From the NCBI GenBank assembly GCA_977020255.1, contig CDROCS010004352.1, forward strand, positions 1 to 62,604: a DNA stretch of 62,604 bases, in the 5' to 3' direction. Made by a program: the position numbers and the translations under genes. How positions within the stretch are numbered: position 1 is the stretch's first letter; each line of letters opens with the position of its first letter. This DNA is from Obrimoposthia wandeli. Lineage: Eukaryota. Under the pieces are notes generated by a model that was given only the letters and a program-made list of their open reading frames with translations, had not been told where the DNA came from and did no database searches. This document shows positions 13,990-55,055 of this stretch, piece after piece.

Positions 13990-14960
13990 AAGTCCAAAAG
14001 CATTTTCCCGTCATCAGCATACATATCCTTATCAGATTCTTCAAACATTTCTAAATCTTCGTCGCTGCTTAATATCCGTTGGATAGAAACATAGAAAAAA
14101 TGAATAAAACCGATTACAATTTATTACATGCAAAATGAAAGAAAAATGTTAAAACATAAGGATATGAGCACGTTCAATTTTCTACATAGGTAACTTTGTT
14201 CCCATTTCATCTTTCTTGTTCCCATTTCATTTCATAACCATGAAGTTGAATTGTTACAGTCCATTGCTTCTTTTTTGGAATCGCATCAACATCTATTCCT
14301 CTTCCATAGTCTAGAAATGCGGCATCGGCTCCTCAGATACAAAATTCGTTCTTATTGAAAGTAAAATTTGGAACTGCTTTTTCAAGTTTCTGTTTAAGAT
14401 ATTGAAAATCTGGTTTTTGAATATTTGATAGATAATAACTGAACTTTCTTATTTCAATTGTCACATGATTTACTAAAGCAATCAGATGAGCCTTCTTCAA
14501 GAATCTGACTTTGTATTTGAAATATTGAAATACATATATAAAGAAGAATTTATAGAATACAATTTTAGTATAATGAAACTCGTAACTATAAATTATAAAG
14601 GTAGAATAGAAGATGATGTTTCGTACTTATCATTCAATGAAAATAACGTAGAGAATATTGAATAAGATTGATCTATATCACTACTCGAGTCGCAATCTTT
14701 GCATTTCTTTGGTTTGTTAGGTCTATCATACAAACGTAGCAGTCACTGAGATGGGGATACCACAGCAAATGACTCTACTCTGCCCTCCCAATCAACTTTC
14801 AAGAGTTCTAAAGCAGTGGTCTCAAATGACATTCTGGTGCTCAATGTTTTTCTTAATCATCGAGTGATATTTCAATGTTTACATACATGGATACCATTTT
14901 TAAAACAGTTCCATTTAGTCTTCTTTGAAAAGAACTTGCCACACACTTAACATAATTAAT
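13990..14960 (-). pseudogene. Decayed TIR-proximal gene Z (unknown)
   Basis: Acidic C-terminus EDLEMFEESDKDMYADDGKMLLDFE* shared with 46050-46110; internal pieces GADAAFLDYGRGIDVDAIPKKKQWTVTIQLHGYEMKWEQ and VCGKFFSKK. Confidence 0.4.
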
Positions 14961-21789: not shown

Positions 21790-24110
21790 AATGACCATAA
21801 GCAAAACTTTTATTCCTACTAACCTATGTTCTTTTATAATCAAAATATTTTAAAGCAACTTTAGAAGTAAATTTTGTCTGAAGCTGAATGTTAACCGATG
21901 CTATACGTGACTGGTTAACACTAATAATTTCTTCATTTTCATAACTACTGAGGTAGTTTTGATATCTGAAGTTAGTTTGTTTTAAAGAAATACCCTTAGC
22001 CCTTAATTTATTTTGAAGTGAATAACATTTTGGTTTTAAGAAAACCCATTCATTATAATCAGTACTCTCACTTTCATATTTAAATTTTCCAATTACAGTT
22101 TTAAAGTTTTCTGAATACAAGGTATGTGTTTTAGGATAATTACTCGTATCTAAATACCCATGTGTAATCATTTCTTTGAGTAATTTATCCTTATTAATAT
22201 TCACACACTCGAGGAAAAATAATCTGTGTACATAGCTATCATTTAAATACTACACTTAAAAGCTTGCCTATACCGTTCAACATATTGTAATTGATACATT
22301 CATAAACTAGATATATCAAGTACAGCTTGACAGATATAATAAGTCTAATCTAAACATATCTCCTGTTTCTGCATTAAAATTAAATTTAAATCATAATTTA
22401 TTTGAGTATAGCGTTTAAACCAAGGACTCGAAACTAATTTTTCAAACCGTTTATTTTTATTATATTATCTAATATCAAGCCCCCTCATAAGATTCTCAAA
22501 CGTTTAACCGTAAATATAATTATTTTTTAATTTGTAAAACTCATATTCAAAATTATTACACTCTAGTTTGAATTAAAATATATATATTGTTTTAAAATGG
22601 GTACTTTTTTAAACTCATAGCTCTATGAATTGTTAAGATTTCAGCACCAAGAAAAACAGAATAGTAGTAAATAGAAATGAATTACATAATGTGTTATCAT
22701 TATGTGTTAAAAGCTATTTAGGAGTTTTTGAGTTTGGTGGACACATCTTATGTGGTCCAATAATGAAGTCATCAACTTTATTATGTTTACGATTCGGAAT
22801 ATGTAAGTCTACTTCAACAAGAAAATCCCATACGATTTTAATCAAATCCTTATCACTTCCAACTTAATTCAAAATATCATCAAAATTATCATGCACTCAC
22901 TTAAATTCCATATGGGGTAAAGGTTGACTTAAAGCCCATCCGTATAAGTTATTCACATATATATATAGAATTGATGTACTATCATCAGACTTACAATAAT
23001 GTTTATTGACAAAAGTCATACCTCCTTTAATACCTGCTTCAAATAAATTATACATTTATGGATCATGTATCAAGTATACTTTATGTGTTGATGATTTTAC
23101 TGCACTACACCAACTAAGACTGGGAATACTAAAGAAATTAAGAGCCTCAAGATTATCATCAGATCTAACTTTCTGTCAAAAAGCCTCAAATATGTCACAA
23201 AGGAAGTATACATCAAGACGCATATATTCCATCATAAAGTATTTAATATTAGTGTAGCTTAGTTTTGTCCACATTGTGTGAACTAATTTATATTTATCAT
23301 CTGTAAGTCTATCAGAAAATTCACATTTTAGAGGCAATTTATCTTTATATAACTTAGATTCACTGGAAATATATTCATAGAGAAAACCCCTTTACTAGAT
23401 ATCAAATCAGTGCTAAAATCTCTCGATGTATCCGGGGAACTGGGAAGATAACTAACTAACATAGATTTTTAAGACTAGTTGTTGTAAAATGATATAAATC
23501 TAAACATTTCAAGGTTCCAGCCGATAATTTTATTTTTAGAGCCATACATTTTTCATTAAATTTGAATATGATTGAATAACTTTTTACTTATCATTTTGGA
23601 AATTTTAAAATATTATGAATTAAGTTTTGAAAAAGTATTAATAACATAGATATCTTACCAAATCTACGAGATAAATTACATTTATTACATGCTGAAACAT
23701 GATCATAATCACGTACTAAATCTCTAGTGATTTTATAACAAAGGTACGACTCTCTCGAAAAACTACCCGATTTTCATTTGTCATTATTAGTGGTGCTTGC
23801 AAATTATTTCTTTAAAAAAGTGCAAGAATTTCATCAAGAATTTCCGTTAATTTATCAATAAAGTTGGAAGCACAATCTAAACCGAAATATGAAAAGTATT
23901 CTATTGTGTCAGTAACATTATTTTTCAACAACATTCCAACTGCAATGGGATTATGTATAGGTTTAACTATCACATCAGGTTCTAAAATACTTTCAAAATC
24001 AGCGTAAACTACAAAATGAGGTTGAACTGACTTTGACCAATCTGTAAATTAACAATATTTACCATCCGATGTAGTGAATAAAGTTGTAGTATCACTAATA
24101 AAATTACAGT
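21790..24110 (-). pseudogene. pPolB: Polinton protein-primed DNA polymerase B, degenerate
   Basis: VVYADFESIL; VRDYDHVSACNKCNL (EndoVII-like); GIKGGMTFVNKH...YVNNLYGWALSQP; IGKFKYE...LKPKCYSL...RAKG; AYGH terminus. Confidence 0.9.
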
Positions 24111-25384: not shown

Positions 25385-25739
25385 TTATTGAGAAACTTGA
25401 TGATGCAACCATAAAAGACATAAAGGACCAAAATTAGTAGTTAACGGATTTTGCATACGAGTTTTATTGTAGAATATATGGTATTTCCATTGAGTTTCCA
25501 CATTTCTGATGACTGTTGACGGATAATAAATTCTTAGAGGATCGATTATGTGTACATTATCACGTCTCATGAATAGTGCAATCCAGTGTTCACCAGGTAA
25601 ATTACTTGTATGAGTATTTACAACATATCCTCCAGGTTTTAGAGTCTGTATTTTATCCATAGGAAACACTCATTTGAATTTATGTTCCATTAATTGAATT
25701 CCCACAGTATTAACCTGTTTAGAACAACACTTACTTCAT
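25385..25739 (-). pseudogene. Polinton adenain-like cysteine protease, with a remnant intron after ATG-AA and one premature stop
   Basis: NTHTSNLPGEHWIAL...IIDP...MQNPLTTNFGPLC (catalytic Cys replaced by F); ATG at 25739 overlaps the capsid stop codon. Confidence 0.85.
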
Positions 25740-26249
25740 CCAACAATTGCACGTTTGCCTTTAGGTACTTGAATTTCAGTATCGAAAACACCGCAAATTA
25801 TTATGCTTGATGGTGTTCTAATCCCGAGAGACGGTCAATACAAATTTAAAAAATGGATAACGTTCCTTAAAATAATCAAATGTTATACCTATGTTTATAT
25901 TCTTTTCCAATAATTCCATGTTTCTAATCTGTGATTGAATATACGCAAACATGAACTCATCTTTTTCAAAGTTTGTAGTGTACGTTTCAACAAAATCAGT
26001 GTTTCTACAAAGGGAAATTGAACCGACATTACAATGATCAAATTCTGAAGTGTATGTTTCACTAGACCCGTCCATTTTAAGATTATCTTGAAATGTAACC
26101 AAAACAAATTTAGGTAATTGCTCATCATCAAAAATAGGCAATTTATAAAATTTTGTAGCACCTTTAGGTAGTGAATAATGTACCACTTTTCTACGTATAT
26201 ATGGATAAACCGCATTTTGAGTTTCCAAACCAACATTATGAACCATCAA
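25736..26249 (-). pseudogene. Polinton double-jelly-roll major capsid protein, C-terminal part
   Basis: YPYIRRKV...LPKFVLVTFQ...NVGSISLCRNTDFVETY...GVFDTEIQV; homologous to 46204-46758. Confidence 0.85.
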
Positions 26250-26399
26250 TACTGATATTTAGGTGGTTCAAGAAAATCCGATTGAATTGAACCGCACAAC
26301 TCAAATTCATTAGATTTTTCTATCCAACCTTACTGACATAACCAATTGAATCCAATGAAATACTTTTCGTATCTTTGCTATAATTAAGCATATATTCAA

Positions 26400-33695: not shown

Positions 33696-34903
33696 TTATT
33701 CAAAAGTTTATTAACAAACAATTAAAATAATACAACGTAATAATAAATCCATAACAATTGATTTAAAATAATTAGAAATTTACATAATTTATATTTCAAC
33801 ACACACACACACACAATCGATGCATTTTAGTTTTCATTTCATTTCTCACAGCAGCCAACGCCAACCATTTCCCCACCATCGCCATCCAAAGTTACCTCTT
33901 TAGTTATTTATTCTATTTTTTAGCTAAATTTAGTTTGAGTCACGATCACCTTTCTTTCTCCAAAACCGCAGGCCAGAACAGACGATGTAAAGGATATTTG
34001 AATTTCAGCTCTTCTCACATGCAGATTTCTCGTCAAAACAATTAATTCCAGTTTTATAAATATTTCATTATTTAATCAGGAAATTCAAAATTAATTTTTA
34101 GTTCTAACGCCTTAAATCAATACTTGAAATTCAAATTCTTTGCTAGTAGTATAAATTGAGGACTCAGTGGAATGTTAGCACAACAAAGAACGGGGTTGTC
34201 ACATGAGGACTTATGATTCATGCTCCACAAAGTCGTCACTTTTTCACAGGCATAATTGATTTTGATTTTTAGAATTTTGCCATGATTTCAAAAAAAAAAA
34301 TTTACAATGAATTCAAATTTAAATTCAAAAATCCAATATGTCACGAATTTTAAAAAAATTTAAATTAAATTAGTTTTATTGAAGTGAAAAAATTCTACTT
34401 AACCCAAAATAATATGCATATTTCAAATATTTTAAACACATTTGGATATCAGTTCATTAAAACAAAATATTTTTTCATTAAATACATTTAAAAAAATTCA
34501 ATATAGACCAAATATTATACTGATTACAATCAAGTTAACTTAATTCATCAATAAAATCAATTTACAATTTTTATAACATTTATTCAAATATATTTGCTAA
34601 TTATTTTTTAATGTATTATACCGATTAAAACTTTCTTAACTGAAATTTTGTTTTGAATTCTAAGTTAAAATCAAAAATATATTAATTCAATTCATTCATT
34701 TCAATCTTTTTATTAAAATAATTCATTTCAATATCAAACAATATCAAACAATCAATTTATTTTAGTCCATTTAAGTTTTTTTTTATTTTTAACTACAGAT
34801 TTGATTAATTTTTTCACTTCTTTTTTCTTAATGATTCTTTTTTTTTGATTTCTTAGAATTTACTTTACGTTTTACTATCAATTTTGTAAAAGGCATTGCG
34901 AAT

Positions 34904-35551
34904 TTATTTTTTATAATTGTTCTCTATTTGTTTATAAACAGTTACTCCCTTAAAATTAAATATGTATGTTAAAACACGTAAATCATCTGGGCAAGCTTGT
35001 GTAAAGTCAATAAATATATACCCATGTGCTTGTTTAGCAGCATCGTGGAATGAATCAACTAGAAAGTTATTATTTTGAGGAAATGCCTGTCTGGCTACAA
35101 AATCAACAACTGTTTGATCTCTAGGATTTTTAAATAAAACTAAGTAATGTACATTAAGATTTCTTGTTCTATGGTGACCTCCTTGGTGAAACAGATTTTG
35201 AGTGATAAATATAACTGTAACTTCACGATGTCTTGCAATCTTTGTAAATAAATTATTAAAGTCCGATTCCTTGTTAGCCTCATCATACAAATCATCAATT
35301 ATTATTACATCTTCTTTTTTCAATCTTTCACACTAATTTGCATCAAATCCTTCAATAAATTTTATACCCTTCAACTTGCAAACTTCTGTTTTGGTTAACC
35401 CGCTTTCCCCTCGTCCACCATGATGCCAATAAATATTTTTGAAACTAGATTTGAAAAGAGATTCATTTTGCAACAATTTACATACGAAATGTGTCTTTTC
35501 ACTTCCACTTGGGCCAACTATTTGAAATACAGCATTATTATTTAGCTCCAT
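34904..35551 (-). pseudogene. Polinton A32/FtsK-like packaging ATPase; one in-frame stop (W to *) and Walker A G-to-E change
   Basis: GPSGSEKT; IIIDD (Walker B); ARHREVTVIFITQNLF...RNLNVHYLVLFKNPRD...GYIFIDF; the two track ORFs are in the same frame across a single TAG. Confidence 0.93.
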
Positions 35552-35588
35552 TGCATATACTCTTTCATTTTTAATATTGTTTATATTA

Positions 35589-35861
35589 TCATAGAAGTTT
35601 CCTTATTGAAATGTACAATGTTAGAGCTATTGTAGATGAAATACAAAAATTAATTAATGAATATTTGGCTATAATTTTATTTATTTGTGTACGATTTCTA
35701 AATTCTCGAATAACGTGTGATCTAACCAATATTTCAATGTTATCTCTTGTTATATCATTATTTTTTAATTCTGATAAAATTTCTTTACCCCTAATTTTTC
35801 CAGAAAATATTTCATCGGCAAGCCGATCCACTTCATTGTTTCTATTTATAGTATTATTCAT
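35589..35861 (-). CDS. Uninterrupted ~90-aa ORF between the TBP-like gene and the ATPase
   Basis: ATG at 35861 overlaps the last codons of the TBP-like ORF; stop is 38 bp before the ATPase ATG. Confidence 0.5.
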   Translation of the reverse strand: MNNTINRNNEVDRLADEIFSGKIRGKEILSELKNNDITRDNIEILVRSHVIREFRNRTQINKIIAKYSLINFCISSTIALTLYISIRKLL

Positions 35862-36480
35862 TTGAAACAATAAGTTTAAACGGGGTTTGTTTATAGAAAA
35901 TAGATAACAAGATGTAATAAGATATATTTTCTAAAATCAAATCAACTATGTCTGGATAATCAAAATTTGTCAATCCCAATATCATAACTTTACCACTGGA
36001 AAATATATTTACACATAGCGGTTTAAACTTCAAATAGCTGAGAGCAGGAAAAATTTCTGGTTCAAACATGCATTCTTCTTTCATTTTCTCTGCAGTTTTA
36101 AAAAGATTTATCTGTTTTCCGAGATTAGCCGAAATCGTGATTGATTGTATTGCTGGGATTTGAATTCCAAATGGCAAATTGAACCCAAGCATTGGTATTT
36201 TGCATCCCATAACACGACAATTTCCATGCAGCCATCAGTGGGAGTTTAGGGTGTATGGCCATGCAGTCATCAGTGGGAGTTTAGGGTGTATGGCCATGCA
36301 GCCATCAGTGGGAGTTTAGGGTGTATGGCCATGCAGTCATCAGTGGGAGTTTAGGGTGTATGGCCATGCAGCCATCAGTGGGAGTTTAGGGTGTATGGCC
36401 ATGCAGCCATCAGTGGGAGTTTAGGGTGTATGGCCATGCAGCCATACAATAATACAAATGGTCGGTACTTCTAGAACAAC
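35854..36480 (-). CDS. TATA-binding-protein-like gene; second repeat intact, first repeat interrupted by a minisatellite
   Basis: IQSITISANLGKQINL...FEPEIFPALSYLKFKPLCVNIFSSGKVMILG matches TBP repeat 2 (IQN...YEPELFPGLIY...IFVSGKVVLTG); PTICIIVWLHGNCRVMGCK aligns without gaps to PKTTALIFASGKMVCTGAK once the array is removed. Confidence 0.85.
36224..36445. repeat. 35-bp minisatellite, 6 copies
   Basis: g(c/t)catcagtgggagtttagggtgtatggccatgca starts at 36231, 36266, 36301, 36336, 36371 and 36406. Confidence 0.97.
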
Positions 36481-37304
36481 AAAGATTTTTTATATTGTAA
36501 ATTAAAGCGGTTTTTTATATTTCATTACCTTTTTTCTTAGTTATTGGTCTAAAGTAAAATTTACAAATAGATGTATCATTGTTGACTGGCTGCATTGTCT
36601 GGCTTGGGTCAGTGGAGCTCCTCTGCCATGACAATGCGGCAGCAGTCAGGCACGGCCAACACCCCTCCAGAAGTCGACACGGATGTTTACAACACTCCGT
36701 CACAATTGAAATGCACACAAAATTTGCATTATCTCAGTGTAAAACAATCTCATATTTATATCTCCACACTGTTCTGGATAGAGTTGATTGTCGTCCTTCG
36801 TAGACTTATTTATGTGTATCACTGAAATTCCTGCACATGCTGTAGCTGTGGAATCCATCAGTCAAGAGTGAGGGCAGGTCAAATAATCACAGCCACCTGG
36901 TTGACCTTGAAACATAGAATGATATTTTATTAAATTAAAGTAACATAACAAATTATTTATTGTAGCGTCAATTTCTTAATAATTGTAAAACATTTTTATT
37001 CAATATTGATGATGAGCTGTGAAACTTGTCAGAGGTTTGAAATAGATACAACATCATATGCGGATGTACAATTACATCTGAAAGAGCTCCGAAACTGTGA
37101 CAATCGGCTGATGACCAGACAAATTCCGTAATGGATCATTTCAAGCTCAAAGATCGAAGATGCAGACAAGAATCAAGGCTGATAAATTCACCCTCTTGAA
37201 GAGATCATTTTATGTTAGTTAGAGAGGAAGGCCTAATTGAATCATCCTATCAAATGGCTCAGCCCATGCAACTTCTTGAAACATGTGTAGCCGAGAAATC
37301 AGGG

Positions 37305-37360
37305 GGATGTGTCCGGTCTAATCCACCAACCCCCTACCCTGGGGATAACACTGTCCTCGA
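37305..37360 (+). mobile_element. Truncated Polinton TIR fragment
   Basis: ggatgtgtccggtctaatccacc...cctggggataacactgtcc. Confidence 0.65.
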
Positions 37361-37932
37361 TACGAATCCAGAAGTTCCGAGTAGAAAGGAAATAATTACA
37401 GGTATTTTAAGGCAAGTAAAGTAAAATGTATCAAGTTATAGCCAGATTGTTGGGAAATCAACCGACTAGTATCAAACTAATCAAAGCGATGACATACTTA
37501 AGTATTCAATTAACAGAATGAACAAGTCAACCGAATGAAGTCTAACAAGGGAAAAGCGAAGCAATGTTTCTAATTTAGAAAGCACTGTAACAACGTATTG
37601 ATGAGAATGGTGCATAGATAAAACTGAGATATTATGGTGAAATATTTATGGAAGTGACAGAAGACGATGACGAACAAATTCATGAGAATCGTCAAAGAGA
37701 AAATAAACAATACCGTCCGAAAGAAAGAAAAATCAACCAAATATGTCCACAACAATGATGATGATGTTAGTCATGTTCATGGGAATACAACATTTATCAG
37801 CACTAGTAGCAGACAATTGTCAAAATGTGTTTTTATGCACAAATTTTAAAAAATTGTAAAAATCGTTAAATTTTGATCGTATTTGATCGATTTTGGTAAA
37901 ATTTTGAGGTCATGACCTTATGAGGACACGGC

Positions 37933-38234
37933 AGTACGTGGAAATGTACGTTCTAATCCACCCTTTTAAATACCACTGTCTTTTAAAACCGTGCATGTGT
38001 GTAGAGTGAAATTACTGAAAAAAGCAAGAAAAGGGAGGCGCAAATTGGGGTCGTCCGGAGGAGCGTGTTAGGGCGGCCGCACCACCCCCATACCCAAAAA
38101 AGGGGCGAAATTTATTTGGGTGGGGTACCCTTCCCCCTTTTGTTGTTTCTTTCAGAAATTTCACTCCACACACATGCAAGGTTTTAAAAGACAGTCCTAG
38201 GGGGAGGGGGTGGATCCAGACATATCCACCTACT
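37933..38234. mobile_element. 302-bp non-autonomous mini-Polinton (MITE-like) with 6-bp TSD CACGGC
   Basis: CACGGC at 37927-37932 and 38235-38240; termini AGTA...TACT; internal inverted arms ctgtcttttaaaaccgtgcatgtgtgtagagtgaaatt / aatttcactccacacacatgcaaggttttaaaagacag. Confidence 0.88.
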
Positions 38235-45730: not shown

Positions 45731-46203
45731 NNNNNNNNNNNNNNNNNNNNNNNNNNNNNNNNNNNNNNNNNNNNNNNNNNNNNNNNNNNNNNNNNNNNNN
45801 NNNNNNNNNNNNNNNNNNNNNNNNNNNNNNNNNNNNNNNNNNNNNNNNNNNNNNNNNNNNNNNNNNNNNNNNNNNNNNNNNNNNNNNNNNNNNNNNNNNN
45901 NNNNNNNNNNNNNNNNNCTCCGCTTCATTCTTAATCTACAGGCACGAAAAACATCGGTCAGATCTATATAATTTAGAGGAGCAAAAACAAAATACGAGAC
46001 AAAATTATTTTTCAAAATATTTATTAAACATAAAACAACATATTGGCTTCACTCAAAGTCCAGAGAGGCTGCATTGTCCCGTCATCAGCAAAATATCCAT
46101 TCAGACGTATTGAGATATTCCATAGTTCTTCATCTAGAATTGGAGCAATCAAATATCCTAGATCATCTTTAAAATCACACAGTTTTAATGGCATAATATA
46201 GGA

Positions 46204-46758
46204 ATGGAAAAAAACAATGCTTGTTATCCTATTAGAGAAACTAAACTTATATCTTATTCTTTAGATACGGGTACACAAGCTTTTAATAAGGATCAAATTT
46301 TTGGTGATGTAAGATTACCGAAATTCATTTTAATTTCTTTTCAAAAAACTGCAAAGTTTCTAGGAAATTATACGACAGATGCAACTCAATTTGACAATCT
46401 TAATGTTGGTTCAGTGACACTTTCAAGAAATACTGATTATCGTGAAACATATAAAACAGATTTCGAAGGTAACGCTTATGCTTTGGCTTATACCCAATCT
46501 ATTATTCGAAATTTGGGTCAACTAGATAAAAATATAAACAATGGTATTTCTTTCACTGACTTTAAAAACAGCTGCCCGTTCTTCACATTTGTTTTGGCAC
46601 CAGACTTTGATATAAATCAATGCCAACTACCAAAGGATGGAAATTTACAACTAGAAATTAAGTTCAATGCAGCTTTAACAAATCCTACTACGGTGCTTAT
46701 TTACGGAGTATTTGATTCCGAAATACAAATCAATAAAAACAGAATTGTCATATTATAG
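46204..46758 (+). CDS. Polinton major capsid protein, C-terminal half (5' part deleted)
   Basis: YPIRETK...DQIFG..RLPKFILISF...FTFVLAPD...KDGNLQLEIKF...LIYGVFDSEIQINKNR. Confidence 0.9.
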   Translation: MEKNNACYPIRETKLISYSLDTGTQAFNKDQIFGDVRLPKFILISFQKTAKFLGNYTTDATQFDNLNVGSVTLSRNTDYRETYKTDFEGNAYALAYTQSIIRNLGQLDKNINNGISFTDFKNSCPFFTFVLAPDFDINQCQLPKDGNLQLEIKFNAALTNPTTVLIYGVFDSEIQINKNRIVIL

Positions 46759-46759
46759 A

Positions 46760-47139
46760 ATGGAGTAAACATATTTTAAATTTATATTTATTAATTTTTA
46801 TTTAGTTCAAAACAAGTAAAAAAATCAGCAGAGAAGGTCCTGGGTGATAAATTCAATGGAGTTTATCCTATTGATATGATTCCATTTTTTCAACCTGGAG
46901 GTTACATTATCAATACTCATACTTCGAATTTACCAGGAGAACATTGGATAGCTATTTATGTTAGAGAGTGGACAATACATGTATTTGATCCACTTGCAAT
47001 GTATTATCCACACAAACTTGTTTCAACTATTCAAAAAGGCCGAAGAAGAGTATTTTACAGCAAGATACAATATCAGGATCCTGCGACGAGAAACTGTGGT
47101 CATTTATGTATTTTATGGTTATTGTTGCAAAACAATTAG
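46760..47139 (+). CDS. Polinton adenain-like cysteine protease, apparently intact, with a 41-nt intron (46765-46805)
   Basis: ATG GA|gtaaac...tttag|T TCA gives MDSKQVKK...; NTHTSNLPGEHW, VFDP, YQ and NCGHLC supply the His/Asp/Gln/Cys residues. Confidence 0.9.
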
Positions 47140-47414
47140 TGTGTTATAAAAATAAAAAATTTAAATGTTTTATTTTGAATTATTTTTTAAATTTCTAAAA
47201 ATATAAGGGTAAAATAATAAAAGACATAAGACAATTTTTTTTAATACATTTATTAATCACAACATCACAATGAGATATGTCAGCAAAGATAAGGCATAAT
47301 AAATAAGGTCCATCCTAAAAAGGTATTGAAATAACAAATAAGTTAGAGTCTAAGTGCCATAAGGATCTAAAATTTTAAAAAACTAAACTAAAAAAATCAA
47401 AAAATGAAAACCGT

Positions 47415-50040
47415 TTAAATTCTGAAGTGTCCATAAGCCAGACTAGCGTTCTTTTCTACCCAAAAGCACTTGTCGTCATTACTACTCAAAGCGATTTTGG
47501 TTGATTTATGGGAATACAGTTGATGGGCTCTTGAAATAAATCTAGTTTGCTCAACGCTTTCAATACACCCAGTATCATAAACTTTCCGGTAGGCTTCATG
47601 TGTAAGATTGTTTCTTCCCACACCCTTTGCTCTCATTGAACATGTATTATTAGATGCATGTAAACTGTAGCATTTAGGCCGTAGGAAAATACAATCATCA
47701 TACGAAACCTGTCCCTCGCTTTCATCCTTAAATTTCCCGATAATGTCCTTTAAACTCATAGAGTGTTGAGGATGGTTAGAGGGATATTTATGGGTATCTA
47801 GTAAGTTGTCCCTAAACATTGCTGGTAATAATTGATTATTTAAACTAACATTCCTACATTCTAAAAAGAAAGAGTCAGTGTCCCCAGCTGCGATTTTAAT
47901 CTCACAAAATAATTTTGTCGGTATTTCTCCAATTCTATGTATTGAAGCTCATACATTCTGAGTTTAGAAATGTCTAAAACCGTTTGACCTATATAACTCG
48001 GTCGATCGAGACAAATACTCTGTTTTCCTAATAACACTGCTACCAAGTCATCTGCAATTGTAAAACTACGCTTGAAGTTGTACTTGCTAGTATATGTTAT
48101 TAGTTTACGCTCATCATTGCAAAACCGTAGACAAATACGTTTCCGCAAGTCCTCTACTGTTTTTCCAAAGAGACTATTACTTTTAACTTGTAAAAATCTC
48201 GATCGAATTTGCTAGTGGCCAAATTACGTTTTCTTGAATTCTTCTCAATATAGTCTTTAAACACAAAGTTTTGACTGAAGCTTATAGCACGATGAATTCG
48301 ATTAACTTTCGCTCCCAACTTTAAGTAGAATTGAAGAAGCCGCCAATGCACAACATAATTCAACTTGTCTTCATGGGTTAACAATAATTTCTTAACCTTT
48401 GAATTAGGTAGGCATTGATGAACAGGCGCTACTGGAAGATCATCTAATTTATCATGCATATTGGGAGGGATTTTTATGTCCACCTCAACCAAATAGCCGA
48501 CGTCGGATGAAACTGTATCAACATTAGCCAAATCTGTCATCAACTTATTCAACTGATCCACATCATAAACCCACTTAAAGTTGGCATGAGGTAGAGGTTG
48601 AGTAAGCGCCCACCATACAAATTATTAATATCGATGTACAGAATCTCTGTGGATTGATTTTTGACAACATGATGTTTGTTGACAAAAGTCATTCCACCGC
48701 GTATACCATAATCATACATTTGATACATAGCAGGATCTTGCAGTAACTCGATATTAATTTTAAGAGTTTTTATTGCTGTTGCCCATGAAAGACCAGGTAA
48801 ACTAAAGAAATGCATGGGATCTAGCCCATCTTCTGCTAAAGACTTTACACAAAAGGACTCAAAAACATCAGCTAAAAGATAAATGTCTAACTTCATATAA
48901 TAAAGCATATATTCGAGAAGATTTCGACAATTATTCACCCAAAATGTACGGGCCTCATTATAGTCTTGAAGACTTACACCCTCAAATTCAGTTATGGGTG
49001 GGATTTCAGTTGTATTTTCTAAATCTGCGAAAGTTTTCGCAAATTTATACGGAAAAATCCCCTTATCGTTAACCGAAGCTGGGAACACTGACTGTGTAAT
49101 TGGCCATGCATTTAAAGATGCCGTTAAATTTTAAAGACTGCTCAAAAACTGCAGAGAATCTATGAATCTTAAACTGCAGAATTCAGTTTATGCAGTTAAA
49201 GATAAATATTTCTCTGACGTTTTAGGTATACATGAAATTTCCCAAGAGCTTAATGTACCCAACGCATATTTAAGTATATGATGCAAATCATATCCTTTGA
49301 GGTTATGAAACACGATGGAAATGCGTGGTTTTTTAGGGAGACGACAGCCAAGGTTACAAAGGTTGCACGCCGCTCCCAAGTATCACCCCGTAACATGATC
49401 GTGATCTCTGACTAACTTAGACTGGGTTCCACACAAATAACATAATCTACAAGAATTAAAATTAACCCAGTCTATGCCTGTCATGATCATTGCTTGATGA
49501 GCATTGAGATCATACCACGGTTTGACAATTGTTGTTCCTAATTCCTCTAATTTTAACATAAAATCTAAAACACAATTTGAACCGGAAAAATTTATGATAC
49601 TGGGTAATATTGGGGCCTAAGAATAGTAGTCCTGCCGAAGCCGGTAGGTGAATACCTCATACTGGTCGTGCAATGCTAAAATTGACTCAAAATCTGCATA
49701 CACCCTGAATTCCACGGGTATGCATTTTGCCCAATCCCTGAATTTTAAATCCTTATCCTTAGGCATGCTATATAGCGTATTGTCATCAGGATTCAGTGAA
49801 CATAATGTCAGATGTTTGCTGTAAGAGAGCTCGGATCGGAACCCATGCAAACATCTATGACACCACTTACACCTTATCCTAACCGGTAAGGCTCCATTAT
49901 CTAAATTTAGAAGACGATCTAAACTGGGAATTGCAGCATAGTGTAAATTATTATTATGTTCGAGCAAAATTAAGTTGATCGGTGTCCCCTCATTTTTGCT
50001 CCTATAAATTAAATCTACGAAAGGATTTAATTTTTTTTCT
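47415..50040 (-). pseudogene. pPolB: Polinton pPolB with EndoVII-like insertion; several stops and frameshifts; 5' end cut off by the retrotransposon array
   Basis: CHRCLHGF; VYADFES; CYLC...VRDHDHVTG*YLGAACNLCN; FHNLKGYD; FIDSLQF; KGIFPY; YIDINNLYG; SLFGK; GDTDS; GKFKDE; LRPKCY; RAKG; LAYGH. Confidence 0.96.
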
Positions 50041-50044
50041 CTCA

Positions 50045-50715
50045 GTATTATATTTATTTTATTTATTTATTTATTTATCAAACATTTATTAATGTGAACG
50101 CAATCAATTTCTCAAAGGCCCCATAGGGGCCTCTTCTACTTTACGTAGATCCGGGTCTCAATATGCTGCTGGTCCTCGGTAGCAGTAACAGTAGCTGCTT
50201 GGGGTCTCGGTTTCGTCATTGGAACTTTGAGTAGGTCCGCGTACTTTTTCAGTACTCTTACGTCATCGCCGGGTACAGTTTTGGGCCCCTCGGCAGTCTC
50301 GATTGTAGCGGGGCCACCTTTTCGGCCATTACCCGTAACCGACCGCAGGTCGGTTTTCGGGTACGATTTCTCCTCCTGTCCATGTCGAGATTTCGAACTC
50401 TGACCACCACTATTCAAATCTTCCAACAAATCTGTTCGATTGTTGATAAAAGGTCTCTTTCCGGCATACGAATCTGCTGCTTCCTCTAGACTAATGTTGT
50501 TCTTTGCTATTACAAATTTGTCGATAATACCAGACAGTATCTTTGCGCACTCCTCGTTGACATCATAGTTTCGCAGTAACCCAAAAATATCGTCTTGGGC
50601 CCCCTGCAGGAGATTATAATTACTCCCGTTGTTTACCTGCGCTTCATTATTTCTCTTCCTGACCATGTCGAAGTTTTCAGATCTTATTATTTTTATTCAG
50701 ATATTAATAAACAAT
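50045..50715 (-). mobile_element. Internally deleted derivative of the NeSL-like element (176-aa in-frame fusion ORF 50136-50666, 3' hairpin, (TAAA)n tail)
   Basis: KVPMTKPRPQAATVTATEDQQ matches the repeat linker at ~54280-54340; the end IETRIYVK* is homologous to IEAWNYVK* of the RT ORF; AGGCCCC-TAT-GGGGCCT hairpin. Confidence 0.75.
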
Positions 50716-50848
50716 TTTTTTTTTTTTTTTGGATTATTGAAAAAAGGCTCATTTTCGGCACACGAATCTGATGTTGTTTGTTGGTTGTTGGTTGTTGGTT
50801 ATTGGTTGTTGGTTGTTATTGTTGGTTGTTATTGTTGTTGTTTTTTTT

Positions 50849-53800
50849 TTATTTTACGTAGTTCCAGGCCTCAATCTTCTCCAGCTCCTCGGCTGACAAC
50901 TTATCCAGGATCCCAGTTGTATGACTCGAGAATTTAGCCCACGAGGCCGCTGTATGTTCGATGGTTTTCAGGGTTAGTCGGATCTTGATATCCTTGATCT
51001 CCTTTGCTTTAAAACCAGCATTTGCAAAGATCCGGTTATTGATTTCAGGCCAGAAGCGCGTAGAGTTGCACGAGTTTTTCTGGGTGGCGGGTCTTTAGCA
51101 TTTCAACGAGCTCCGCGTATTTGGACATAGTTTCGGTGAGCCTCAGATCAAATGACATGTCAGAGTCAAACGGGATCTTGATCTCTATCAGCATCACCTT
51201 ATAGTCAGTCTCGATCGTTATGTCTGGTCGTGGTCTGCAGCTGTTTCCGTTATCGTCTACACATAAGTGGGTCAGCTCTTGAGTTACCTGTCCTGGATAT
51301 TTTAGTTCCATGACCATTGCAGTTTCCCGGCAGATCATGTCGTGTCTTTGAATTCGTAGTTTTGCTATGAGCTTACAACCAACGATTGCATGGCTCATCG
51401 ACTCTCGCTCCTGGCATCCCTTCCTGCATGGGGCGATCATATCAGTCCTGGGGCCTCGTACCTTCATGCGCCCGCACCTTGCGCGGTGGATGAAGAACCA
51501 CCCTCGGTACGTCAGACGGCCCTTCATGATGGCCCGGTTAATGTCTGTGTCTGATGTGGCGTTCTTATATATTGGACTCGCTAGCTTGTCTTCGAGAACC
51601 TTGTGACTCTGGCTGAGTTGCACAATGTTATGCATCGCCTTACTTGTGGCCTTGTAGGTCTTGAACTGCATGAGAAAACTGCCTCCATGGTCACTGAGTT
51701 ATGAAAAAGATTGTGGGCTTGGTTCTTCTCAATCAGTTCTAGTTTGATATTTAGCTCATTCTGGAATTTGTTGGCCGCGTGGAACAGCCGCGTCCAAAGT
51801 CCCGTATCTTTCATGTTAGTGGCTAGGGTCCCTTCATTAAACCCCTGAACTGCTTCGGAGAAGGTCATTGGCGGATTAGGAAACTTCAATTGTTCGGTGA
51901 GCTCACGCCTAAATAGGTTCTTCAGGTCCCTGTCGCGTGCATTTGCCATCTTTATCGTCTGGATGATGGACTGATGTTATATTCGTCCTCAATCCTTGTC
52001 AGCCCAAGACCTCCACGGTCCTTGTGCCCATAGAGAACTCCGATAGGGCTGTTTGCTAAGTCTAGTCCCGCGATTGGTTTTATGACTTTCCTTAGGAGTC
52101 CTTCAAAGCCCCTTTTCGTCTATTCGGTTGCAGGATAAGCGGAGTGTACCAGGTTTCCCTGTCTGAATACAAATATCAGCTTTGAGTGAATGAAGGTATT
52201 GTATGCGTCAGTCTTTTGATACGGTCTTAGTTCGCTTTTTGCCACTGCCGTGGTCAGTCGAAGCACCTCAGCCAACAGCTCCTCGCAATGTTGCTTGGCG
52301 TTTGCAGTCTTTTCGCTGCCATGGTATCGGTATGGCATGTCCGCAGTTACCTCTGGTATTTTTTCTCCTCTCAGCATGATATTGTCAGCTAGTTTGTCTT
52401 TCCTGTAAGGTATTCAGGACAATCTGGGCCGAATGGCAGCTGTAGCTCGCAGTCTTGTCTGGTATTGATCGGTCCTTCTTGAGCTTTGCTTCATGCCAGG
52501 GTCCGGATTTCACCTGTTTCAAATCTGTATCCTGAGCCATGGCTTTGGTTTGTGGCCTCTATTACCGGATTGATGCTCATATTAAATAAGAGCATCGATA
52601 GTGGACACCCTTGTCGCACTCCTCGTTTTATTGGGATCCGGTTGATTTTCCTGTCACCGCAAACAATGTTGGTCATATTCTGCTTATATACATCTTCAAG
52701 CAGTCTGATAGCGGCTGGGGCCACGTTAATTTTTTCCAGCATTCCCCAAATGAAGGAGACTGGCACCGACCCAAAGGCATCGGCCAGATCTAGGAAGGCG
52801 ATGTAGGCGCAGCCTTGGTTCCTCTTTCGCAATACTTCCGAGGTGATCAGGCTAATCACCGTGTTGTGCTCATAGCACCCCTCGTAGGCACCAAGGGATT
52901 TTTGTCGTGGATACAGTATTATATTCTTCCAGGCCCAATCACTCATCCGTATTGTGATGATTGACGCAAATATCTTGTAAACGCATGACATGACTGCGAT
53001 AGGTCGCCAAGCTGTGATGTCATCGTAGCGCTGTTTCCTAGGTTTTGGGATGAACTTGGTCTTGAAGGTTCGCCAAGAGTCGGGAGTCCGTTGTTCGTCA
53101 ATGCATGCATTGTATAGGCCTGCCAGTTTGTTACCATTATCGAAGCTGTGTAACATGTCCCTATATGTTACTTGGTCCGGTCCTGGGGCACTACCAGGTG
53201 CTGCTCTCAGCGCTCGAGTCACCTCCTCTGGAGTGATGTGGCTGATCTCGAAGGTCTCTGGTGCTTTTCGGAAAAGGTTATCGGGAACTGCATCCCAGTC
53301 AATTGGGGTTGGTTCAGCGCTCTTGCTTGTAAAGAAACCCCGTATGTTGTCCTCGTTTGGGCATGCTGTTGTCTCGTCGATAGCGATCTCCGTGATTTGG
53401 TCAAATGCTGCTTTTTTTGAGAAGGCGTATAGCTTGTTAATTACAATATTCTCCTTGTTCTTGCCGTGGTTCCTTGGCTTGAAACAAGGGCTTGATCACA
53501 ATCCAGTTTCTCAGTAGGCAGGCTGTGGTCACAGCCTTTCTATTGCGTTCACGTCCTTTCTTTCCTGCCGGGGGTTATTGCTCAGCACAATGGCCAAGGG
53601 TTCAGATATATCACCCTCCCCATTTCCCGGCGATGCTGAGCAACTCAGTTTCCCGACTTGGAAAGCTGAGGCTGATATATTGTTCTCCAATTCTGTCTTA
53701 TTCTTGTTGTGTGATCTCAGCTGTCTTTCATTTTGGCCTTCCCTACCTGGAATCATGTTCGGTTCACCTGAGGTCGATGCAGTAGGATCTGCATTTAGAT

Positions 53801-54799
53801 CAGTTATTGCTTCGGTCTCTTTGAGGATTGTCGCCTCTGGGATTGTCTTCTCAGCGATTGTCATTTCACTCTCCGTTACGTTGGGTACAACGTCATCCTG
53901 GTTACTGATGTGTCCTGTATTGACAGGGTTTGGGTCCGCTATCTGCGGCATCTTACCTTCAAAGAATTTCTTCTCGGTTTCTGCTGCACTGTTTCGTATG
54001 CCAAACTTTATTTTTTTGTCTGTGGAGAACCACTTTTTGAGCTCGTCCGATTTTTCAATGAAGCCACCATTTTGGCCCATAATGTTAGTTACATTCGCAG
54101 TTCCGTCTTCTCGTCTCTGTACGTTTGCTTTGATGAAAGTGCCACTGATTAGAAAGGGAGAGGTGCCTTTTTTGTTTCCGCTGAGTATGTGCCGTTGTAG
54201 GAGCTTGACTTTAGTTTGTTTGTTATCCATGGCATATCCATATCCTTGGTTGCGTTGGTAGAAGAGCACGTATAGTTGCTGCTGGTCCTCGGTATCAGTA
54301 ACAGTAGCTGCTTGGGGTCTCGGTTTCGTCATTGGAACTTTGATTGTCTCCTCAGTGATTGTCGTTCCTCTCTCTGTTACGTTGGGTACAACGTCATCCT
54401 GGTTACTGATGTGTCCTGTATTGACAGGGTTTGGGTCCGCTATCTGCGGCATCTTACCTTCAAAGAATTTCTTCTCGGTTTCTGCTGCACTGTTTCGTAT
54501 GCCAAACTTTATTTTTTTGTCTGTGGAGAACCACTTTTTGAGCTCGTCCGATTTTTCAATGAAGCCACCATTTTGGCCCATAATGTTAGTGGCATTCGCA
54601 GTTCCGTCTTCTCGTCTCTGTACGTTTGCTTTGATGAAAGTGCCACTGATTAGAAAGGGAGAGGTGCCTTTTTTGTTTCCGCTGAGTATGTGCCGTTGTA
54701 GGAGCTTGACTTTAGTTTGTCTGTTATCCATGGCATATCCATATCCTTGGTTGCGTTGGTAGAAAAGCACGTATAGTTGCTGCTGGTTCTCGGTAGCAG
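50849..54799 (-). mobile_element. NeSL/Utopia-like non-LTR retrotransposon (RT, CCHC, RLE endonuclease), decayed; 5' part runs into the gap
   Basis: SAPGPD, WRPIAV...YKIF, GCYEHN, AFLDLADAFGSVP, GVRQGCPLSMLLF, GGLG, CRKGC...ESMSHAIVGC, RHD, PDI...IEIK...KY; YADD segment missing; frameshifts present. Confidence 0.92.
53873..54799 (-). repeat. In-frame 501-bp (167-aa) tandem repeat in the retrotransposon N-terminal ORF
   Basis: Matching positions 54276/54777 and 53910/54411; only a handful of substitutions between units. Confidence 0.95.
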
Positions 54800-54974
54800 N
54801 NNNNNNNNNNNNNNNNNNNNNNNNNNNNNNNNNNNNNNNNNNNNNNNNNNNNNNNNNNNNNNNNNNNNNNNNNNNNNNNNNNNNNNNNNNNNNNNNNNNN
54901 NNNNNNNNNNNNNNNNNNNNNNNNNNNNNNNNNNNNNNNNNNNNNNNNNNNNNNNNNNNNNNNNNNNNNNNNNN

Positions 54975-55055
54975 GTACATCGCCAAGCTAGTCTGTGACC
55001 TATATGAGAACGAGATATCCGTACATCTGTGATCAATGTCGGTCCCGAGCCCTTG
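54975..55055 (-). repeat. Inverted copy of the 46-bp minisatellite and its flank
   Basis: Reverse complement aagggctcgggaccgacattgatcacagatgtacggat... matches 45557-45630. Confidence 0.9.

Follow-up and report, generated by a model that had tools for sequence, protein, structure and literature searches.

In cellular TATA-binding protein (TBP), the N-terminal repeat of the saddle covers the 3' half of the TATA box, helix H2 docks host regulators, and the acidic C-terminal stirrup contacts TFIIB. Giant viruses, among which TBP-like proteins occur as well, often bring their own RNA polymerase. Regarding promoter recognition, the second phenylalanine pair of TBP intercalates at TATA positions 7-8 according to the available text of PMC1935006, and C-G pairs in TBP-TATA structures go Hoogsteen, avoiding a leucine clash (available text of PMC4402545). 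In beta- and gamma-herpesviruses, a viral TBP mimic (KSHV ORF24/EBV BcRF1) is proposed to guide host Pol II, by way of a variant TATA word, to the late genes; according to the available text of that source, an additional N-terminal domain of ORF24 serves to recruit Pol II, and five more viral proteins are needed (PMC7498053). For Mavericks, eight core genes are reported from vertebrates, which are described as intronless and do not include a TBP as far as the available text goes (PMC8097293). 'TBP' does appear in the Fig. 5 legend of Starrett 2021 (PMC8502044) for MELD viruses with adintovirus-like PolB, without analysis in the available text, and is absent from one supplement of that paper. 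Likewise, neither 'TBP' nor 'TATA' is found in the main text of PMC8097293, PMC10748475 or 10.64898/2026.10.13.758929. Beyond Starrett's legend, no study of a Maverick TBP protein, its intron or its promoter word was found in the literature searched (figures, bioRxiv supplements, Repbase and subscription papers were outside its scope), and the timing of Maverick capsid and integrase expression is not addressed there.

Here, a TBP-like gene of Mavericks in Obrimoposthia wandeli, termed mini-TBP, is described. The gene is real, element-borne, conserved and TBP-like; its product is a TBP-fold homologue, but neither a canonical TBP nor the host orthologue. The starting point was a 62,604-nt stretch of DNA (the window), in which element DNA around the TBP sequence amounts to 1,459 bp only, comprising TBP exon 2, ORF90 and the ATPase. 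The features are as follows.

34767..36225, minus strand: family-A Maverick/Polinton fragment, both ends cut, 97-99.7% identical to other copies
35854..36224, minus strand: mini-TBP exon 2 (last strand of repeat 1, short linker, complete repeat 2, stop)
35854-35856, minus strand: TBP stop codon
35888..35895, minus strand: TATAAACA word, predicted late promoter, 34 nt upstream of the ORF90 ATG and within the TBP coding tail
35589..35861, minus strand: ORF90, 90 aa, no Pfam family above cut-off
35578..35585, minus strand: TATAAACA word, predicted late promoter, 34 nt upstream of the ATPase ATG
34904..35551, minus strand: A32-like packaging ATPase whose reading frame is interrupted by a stop codon at 35333-35335
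34929..34936, minus strand: TATAAACA word within the 3' end of the ATPase; the next 130 nt contain no assigned gene start
36224..38200, no strand assigned: unrelated repeat abutting the TBP exon, not element DNA, beginning with a minisatellite
36224-36445: minisatellite of 35 bp x 6.3 at the edge of this unrelated 2-kb repeat
45922..50028, no strand assigned: second family-A piece in opposite orientation, internally deleted, without the TBP region

The original prediction had placed a TBP gene reaching 36480 within a Polinton gene cluster. Element sequence is indeed present, but the cluster is not intact, as only 34767-36225 matches the element. Both peptide stretches on which the TBP assignment was based (FEPEIFPALSY...IFSSGKVMILG and GNCRVMGCK) lie in the frame 35857-36234(-), and this frame matches Pfam PF00352 with E 8.9e-12 (45.1 bits, cut-off 22.9), repeat 2 alone scoring. 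As predicted, TBP, ORF90 and ATPase are all found on the minus strand, with the TBP stop overlapping the ORF90 ATG (by 8 nt), while the short gap between ORF90 and the ATPase ATG at 35551 measures 37 nt rather than 38. The proposed upper boundary had to be abandoned, since TBP sequence stops at 36224/36225. The element is broken one base before TBP exon 2, and 36226-36480 is not TBP because the 35-bp minisatellite repeat cuts the element off. Reading 36446-36480 as TBP repeat 1 was rejected; that stretch belongs to the unrelated 2-kb repeat, which is also present on further contigs that do not show its junction with the element. The window lacks exon 1, intron and promoter of mini-TBP. A long N-terminal extension is missing from the intact gene too, as had been proposed, but in the window its absence is due to truncation, other copies having an exon 1 and an intron. 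The window copy, with its truncated TBP and an ATPase carrying a premature stop, is thus a dead fragment and not a complete element with intact genes; neither this state nor the intron had been noticed originally. Its ATPase further differs from most copies in the Walker A motif, and an unbroken copy of the ATPase matches PF04665 (E 4.5e-7). ORF90 has a homologue in family B with about 37% identity.

The window itself is a mosaic of nested repeats. In the second family-A piece, left-end DNA is fused to the capsid C-terminus, protease and pPolB, and further Maverick fragments are located at 21827-22249, 25388-26258 and 14143-14527 (pPolB, family-B-type protease and capsid, orfB). Besides, a non-LTR retrotransposon remnant lies between inverted repeats at 50139-54980(-), displaying a reverse transcriptase (PF00078, E 5e-17) and presumably a restriction-like endonuclease domain.

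A copy search of the organism's own 1.35-Gb genome yielded at least 150 matches, all with 96-100% identity. Among five 40-kb regions with family-A copies examined, two hold whole elements (C2335 and C3752) and the other three one element end only. One whole element measures 17,073 bp, with AGTAG ends and a TGTTAC target duplication; the second displays matched ends and a CATGAA duplication. Hence, the TBP gene is neither single-copy nor a chance neighbour, but is part of complete Mavericks that have AGTAG ends and 6-bp duplications. The gene order is orfA and orfB (reverse), TBP, ORF90, ATPase, PM-like, integrase, minor-capsid-like, PW-like, major capsid and protease, followed on the other strand by pPolB and five accessory ORFs, for none of which a Pfam family scored above cut-off. 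The PM, PW and capsid labels are in part tentative. The integrase matches PF00665 (E 6e-10) and pPolB matches PF03175 with 26.1 bits on a window piece, while the C-terminal pPolB piece of C2335 gave no match. Capsid (PF21738, E 0.006) and protease (PF00770, E 0.025) both score below cut-off, and both occur in the expected place and order. With Mavericks/Polintons/adintoviruses as described in the available text of PMC8097293 and PMC8502044, family A has in common the inverted ends starting AGTAG, the 6-bp duplication and the genes for pPolB, an RVE-chromo integrase and an A32 ATPase, to which its candidate capsid and protease genes may be added. The two ORFs beside TBP, orfA and orfB (L003 73-1084), are paralogous, and orfB homologues accompany mini-TBP in most families. 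The atlas points weakly from orfB to the poxvirus I3/DUF2738 family of single-strand binding proteins, at a score of 0.85-0.87 and thus below 0.9.

The structure of the mini-TBP gene was read from 19 loci other than the window copy. In all of them, exon 1 comprises 130 nt, begins at the first saddle strand and is preceded by a TATATAAAG box; it is open in 18. A GT-AG phase-1 intron of 35-40 nt (38 nt in family A) follows in 17 of the 19 loci, the remaining two showing one changed acceptor and one overwritten intron. At the very same codon, a 40-nt GT-AG intron of different sequence is present in a metagenomic relative and a GT-AG intron also in family B, while other relatives read through this point without an intron. 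Such recurrence of a GT-AG intron at one position in distant relatives suggests that the gene is spliced, unlike the reportedly intronless genes of vertebrate Mavericks. Among the 15 joints listed of 482 (contigs, four runs, one sample), none falls at the TBP intron, a result with no bearing on splicing or expression. A 200-aa read-through of L015 was considered as a splice product and rejected, its intron being overwritten by 27 nt of local sequence. The predicted product has 153-166 aa, with the length set by the tail. Of 12 family-A frames, six end as in the window, four stop 13 codons earlier, one stops earlier still and one continues into ORF90; because of this variation, the 8-nt overlap of TBP and ORF90 is not fixed. 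By eye, further short GT-AG introns are possible at the starts of the protease, the zinc-finger-like gene and orfA of C2335.

AlphaFold2 models of P0002 (pLDDT 96.9) and of the natural L015 frame (pLDDT 94.8) predict a TBP saddle in which the N-terminal repeat is devoid of helices. Both match TBP along their length, with Z 13.3 and 13.8 over 149-152 residues; the best fold match is human TBP 7egb_P (Z 13.8, rmsd 2.5 A, 149 residues), with the next unrelated fold at 6.5. In neither model does repeat 1 (before residue 86/93) hold a helix of at least four residues, so that the canonical helices H1 and H2 are missing. Residues were counted in 107 mini-TBP alignment rows in comparison with cellular TBP, the positions facing DNA or contacting TFIIB being known from TBP structures. 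Of the saddle and the DNA-intercalating phenylalanines named by the original prediction as points to check, the saddle is predicted and three of the four phenylalanines of canonical TBP are kept (second, third and fourth in 106, 106 and 107 rows), but the first is replaced, namely by Gln in 61 and Met in 38 rows. On the sequence level, the stirrup Glu residues are conserved in 97 and 105 rows. New near-invariant residues occupy predicted DNA-face positions (Arg in 106, and Met, Asn and Ser/Thr each in 107 of 107 rows). The linker, which has about 32 residues in cellular TBP, does not exceed 22 residues in 65 rows, and 28 rows have 26 or more; because the latter retain a long linker, loss of the repeat-1 helices marks a subgroup. 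Overall, mini-TBP resembles cellular and archaeal TBP (PF00352; 7egb_P, 1cdw, 1mp9) in the two-repeat saddle, the three phenylalanines, the acidic C-terminal stirrup and the central Asn of repeat 1. It differs in being mobile-element-borne, about 150-166 aa long and only 21-28% identical, in lacking the first Phe and, in the models, the repeat-1 helices, and in conserved polar residues replacing others at its DNA face. As predicted from the models, one half of the protein has kept the TATA-reading surface and the TFIIB stirrup, and the other half has lost its helices and one intercalating Phe.

A candidate target of this protein is the word YATAAACA. It occurs at 13 sites in a whole family-A copy versus 3.5 expected, with a maximum of 10 in 100 simulations. 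Its core ATAAACA is the top 7-mer of this copy and is present within 130 nt of 10 of 15 gene starts (0.83 expected; matched by 0 of 5000 random draws), for a word chosen on the same element on which it was first scored and for starts picked by the analyst, that of pPolB not being located. YATAAACA precedes ORF90, ATPase, PM-like, integrase, minor capsid, PW-like, major capsid, exonuclease-like and orfA genes, at 34-42 nt from the ATG for six of them and at 68-101 nt for three, leaving four of the 13 sites without an assigned gene. In contrast, TBP, orfB and three accessory genes of family A possess plain TATA boxes 38-64 nt upstream; the family-A protease has neither signal within 130 nt. In held-out elements, the wider word YATAAACR displays sense/antisense counts of 9/1 in family E, 8/1 in C (the two being non-independent for this purpose), 8/1 in B and 8/0 in L049, versus 2/2 in 17 kb of host loci. 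In C, E and L053, the variant word is once more missing ahead of TBP and orfB, and the metagenomic L043/L044 have one or two sites only. Within coding DNA, eligible Ile-Asn pairs spell the word in 9 of 15 cases near gene ends but in 2 of 18 elsewhere (Fisher p 0.008). Read with the T that stands before it in nearly all cases, the word becomes TATAAAC, which departs from TATAWAWR at position 7. Since no TBP-free Maverick was found among the own-genome families opened (with a second capsid type and PF03175 as baits), the link between word and protein stands without a control.

Mini-TBP is not confined to family A. Families B, C, D (one locus) and E of the same genome, reached via another capsid, another TBP and the pPolB profile PF03175, all carry it. 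A word-indexed search retrieved seven homologues with 47-55% identity, and a profile search returned 50 clusters at E<1e-30, rising to 271 at E<1e-10, the best 150 of which are nearly all short proteins alongside a few cellular TBPs. Matches of mini-TBP in the atlas are TBP clusters only; scans of IMG/VR with the TBP alignment and the ATPase gave no relative. At 4 of 23 metagenomic loci a core Maverick gene lies next to TBP, and 13 of the 23 have some neighbour homologous to a family-A gene, the other 10 being shorter than 2 kb. TBP-like proteins of giant DNA viruses (BFVD matches, E 1e-8 to 1e-4) share the viral TBP fold but are only 9-20% identical and mostly longer. Host TBP and TRF-like genes were found as separate loci. 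In a quick IQ-TREE tree of 115 rows, which exclude giant-virus TBPs, a branch with SH-aLRT 99 parts 106 mini-TBPs from eight cellular rows and an unassigned two-repeat protein. Mini-TBP thus stands apart from host TBP/TRF. Pairwise dN/dS ratios of 0.12-0.26 in six diverged pairs indicate purifying selection; one close pair of partly decayed copies gave 0.44, and another pair was saturated. The three outcomes named beforehand as contrary to a TBP assignment (a chance neighbour in single copy, a host TBP/TRF gene, no TBP profile match) were all looked for and none was found, so that the assignment is supported.

With the word deviating at position 7 and the protein being rebuilt in the repeat that covers this end, an early/late switch suggests itself: in intact copies, mini-TBP is probably the late-gene switch of the element, reading a private TATA-like word. 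The original prediction that mini-TBP might redirect Pol II to element promoters is backed by the strand-biased TATA-variant word ahead of structural genes. According to this model, host TBP/TFIID would transcribe the plain-TATA early genes including mini-TBP, whose short intron would be excised by the host spliceosome. The conserved C-terminal repeat would then read TATA, while the rebuilt N-terminal repeat would accept the C at position 7, which cellular TBP may handle only via a Hoogsteen pair. Through its acidic stirrup, mini-TBP could recruit host TFIIB and hence Pol II, with loss of helix H2 freeing it from host regulators docking there, and the late genes (capsid, packaging, integrase) would fire once mini-TBP has built up. 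Such a protein would be a late-gene TBP mimic with a variant TATA word like that proposed for herpesviruses, yet of separate origin, without an N-terminal Pol II-binding domain and reading TATAAAC instead of the TATT that the available text gives for herpesvirus late genes. Unlike many giant viruses, a Maverick of 12-17 kb has no RNA polymerase of its own. The broader picture, namely a widespread animal Maverick lineage with a true early/late programme run by a single 150-aa TBP that reads TATAAAC, recruits TFIIB and escapes host regulators, is put forward tentatively, its chances lying just short of even.

Mini-TBP might instead be a decoy which binds host TFIIB or other TBP partners and damps host transcription or silencing, leaving the word to host TBP. 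Near-invariant acidic stirrup residues in a protein that has lost one intercalating Phe would fit this role, and cellular TBP can bind a C(-25) TATA variant, as in the solved structure 1qn3. Three of four phenylalanines and new invariant polar residues at the DNA face, however, imply a selected DNA-reading surface, and the split between plain TATA (TBP-orfB) and variant word (structural genes) recurs in A, C, E and L053, leaving the decoy an unlikely explanation. Equally unlikely is the word as a host-factor site, for instance for a forkhead protein providing tissue or germline timing, with mini-TBP acting elsewhere, e.g. in bending DNA at origins or in packaging. ATAAACA conforms to the forkhead consensus as well, the distance to the ATG is 68-109 nt at some sites, and the TBP gene often adjoins the ATPase or orfB with its weak single-strand binding protein lead; but the strict sense orientation and the spacing peak at 33-45 nt agree better with a core promoter than with an enhancer site, as does the T that nearly always completes TATAAAC.

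Several word sites coincide with the end of the gene ahead of them or lie close to it, and one even overlaps the stop codon of that gene, as would be expected of a polyadenylation or termination signal, in which case mini-TBP would be a general helper without specificity of its own. Many sites, though, are internal to the coding sequence upstream, with 14-75 codons left before its stop, so that cleavage there would truncate the product, and others precede genes without a close upstream partner, which makes this reading very improbable. Finally, a captured host TBP fragment or chance neighbour without a role might be suspected from the truncated, dead window copy and the spliceosomal-type intron. 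This is refuted by copy number, the fixed place in whole elements, purifying selection, the 271 clusters at E<1e-10 (some of them cellular TBPs) and, in the quick tree, the branch that sets 106 mini-TBP rows apart from the cellular TBPs, those of the host included.

The value of the finding lies in the family, the window's own copy being dead. A dedicated TBP with a matching promoter word offers a concrete model for Maverick expression timing and a sequence marker for late genes, and as a natural minimal TBP, mini-TBP may show which saddle parts can be dropped and how TATA specificity can shift. If the late-gene switch is true, no orthogonal TBP-promoter pair in nature would be smaller, and the system would have converged on the late transcription of herpesviruses; it would also argue strongly that integrated Mavericks still behave as viruses.

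Some observations on related loci may be added. Family E is a compact 12.3-kb Maverick (G000:C477, about 147581-159856; L134-L135) with an open pPolB frame of 1,255 codons and the order TBP, orfB-like, ATPase, PM-like, integrase, capsids, protease and exonuclease-like. The right half of family C is about 96% identical to it, while the TBP has diverged, which suggests module exchange. In L049, TBP and ATPase are separated by a RING-finger ORF (PF13920, 1665-2168), and the promoter word occurs 33 nt ahead of this ORF. L043 and L044 (5 kb each) combine mini-TBP with an orfB-like gene and, by eye, a phosphatase-like ORF; no core Maverick gene was found on either 5-kb contig. These loci represent an early region or else a different type of virus. 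In the host, two TBP paralogues are arranged head to head about 1.2 kb apart (L064/L065, G000:C238:871792-873993), and two intronless TRF-like genes (L066, L067) as well as a split gene (L068, L069) are located elsewhere. The host TFIIB family comprises several BRF-like paralogues and one TFIIB (L149) within L145-L152.
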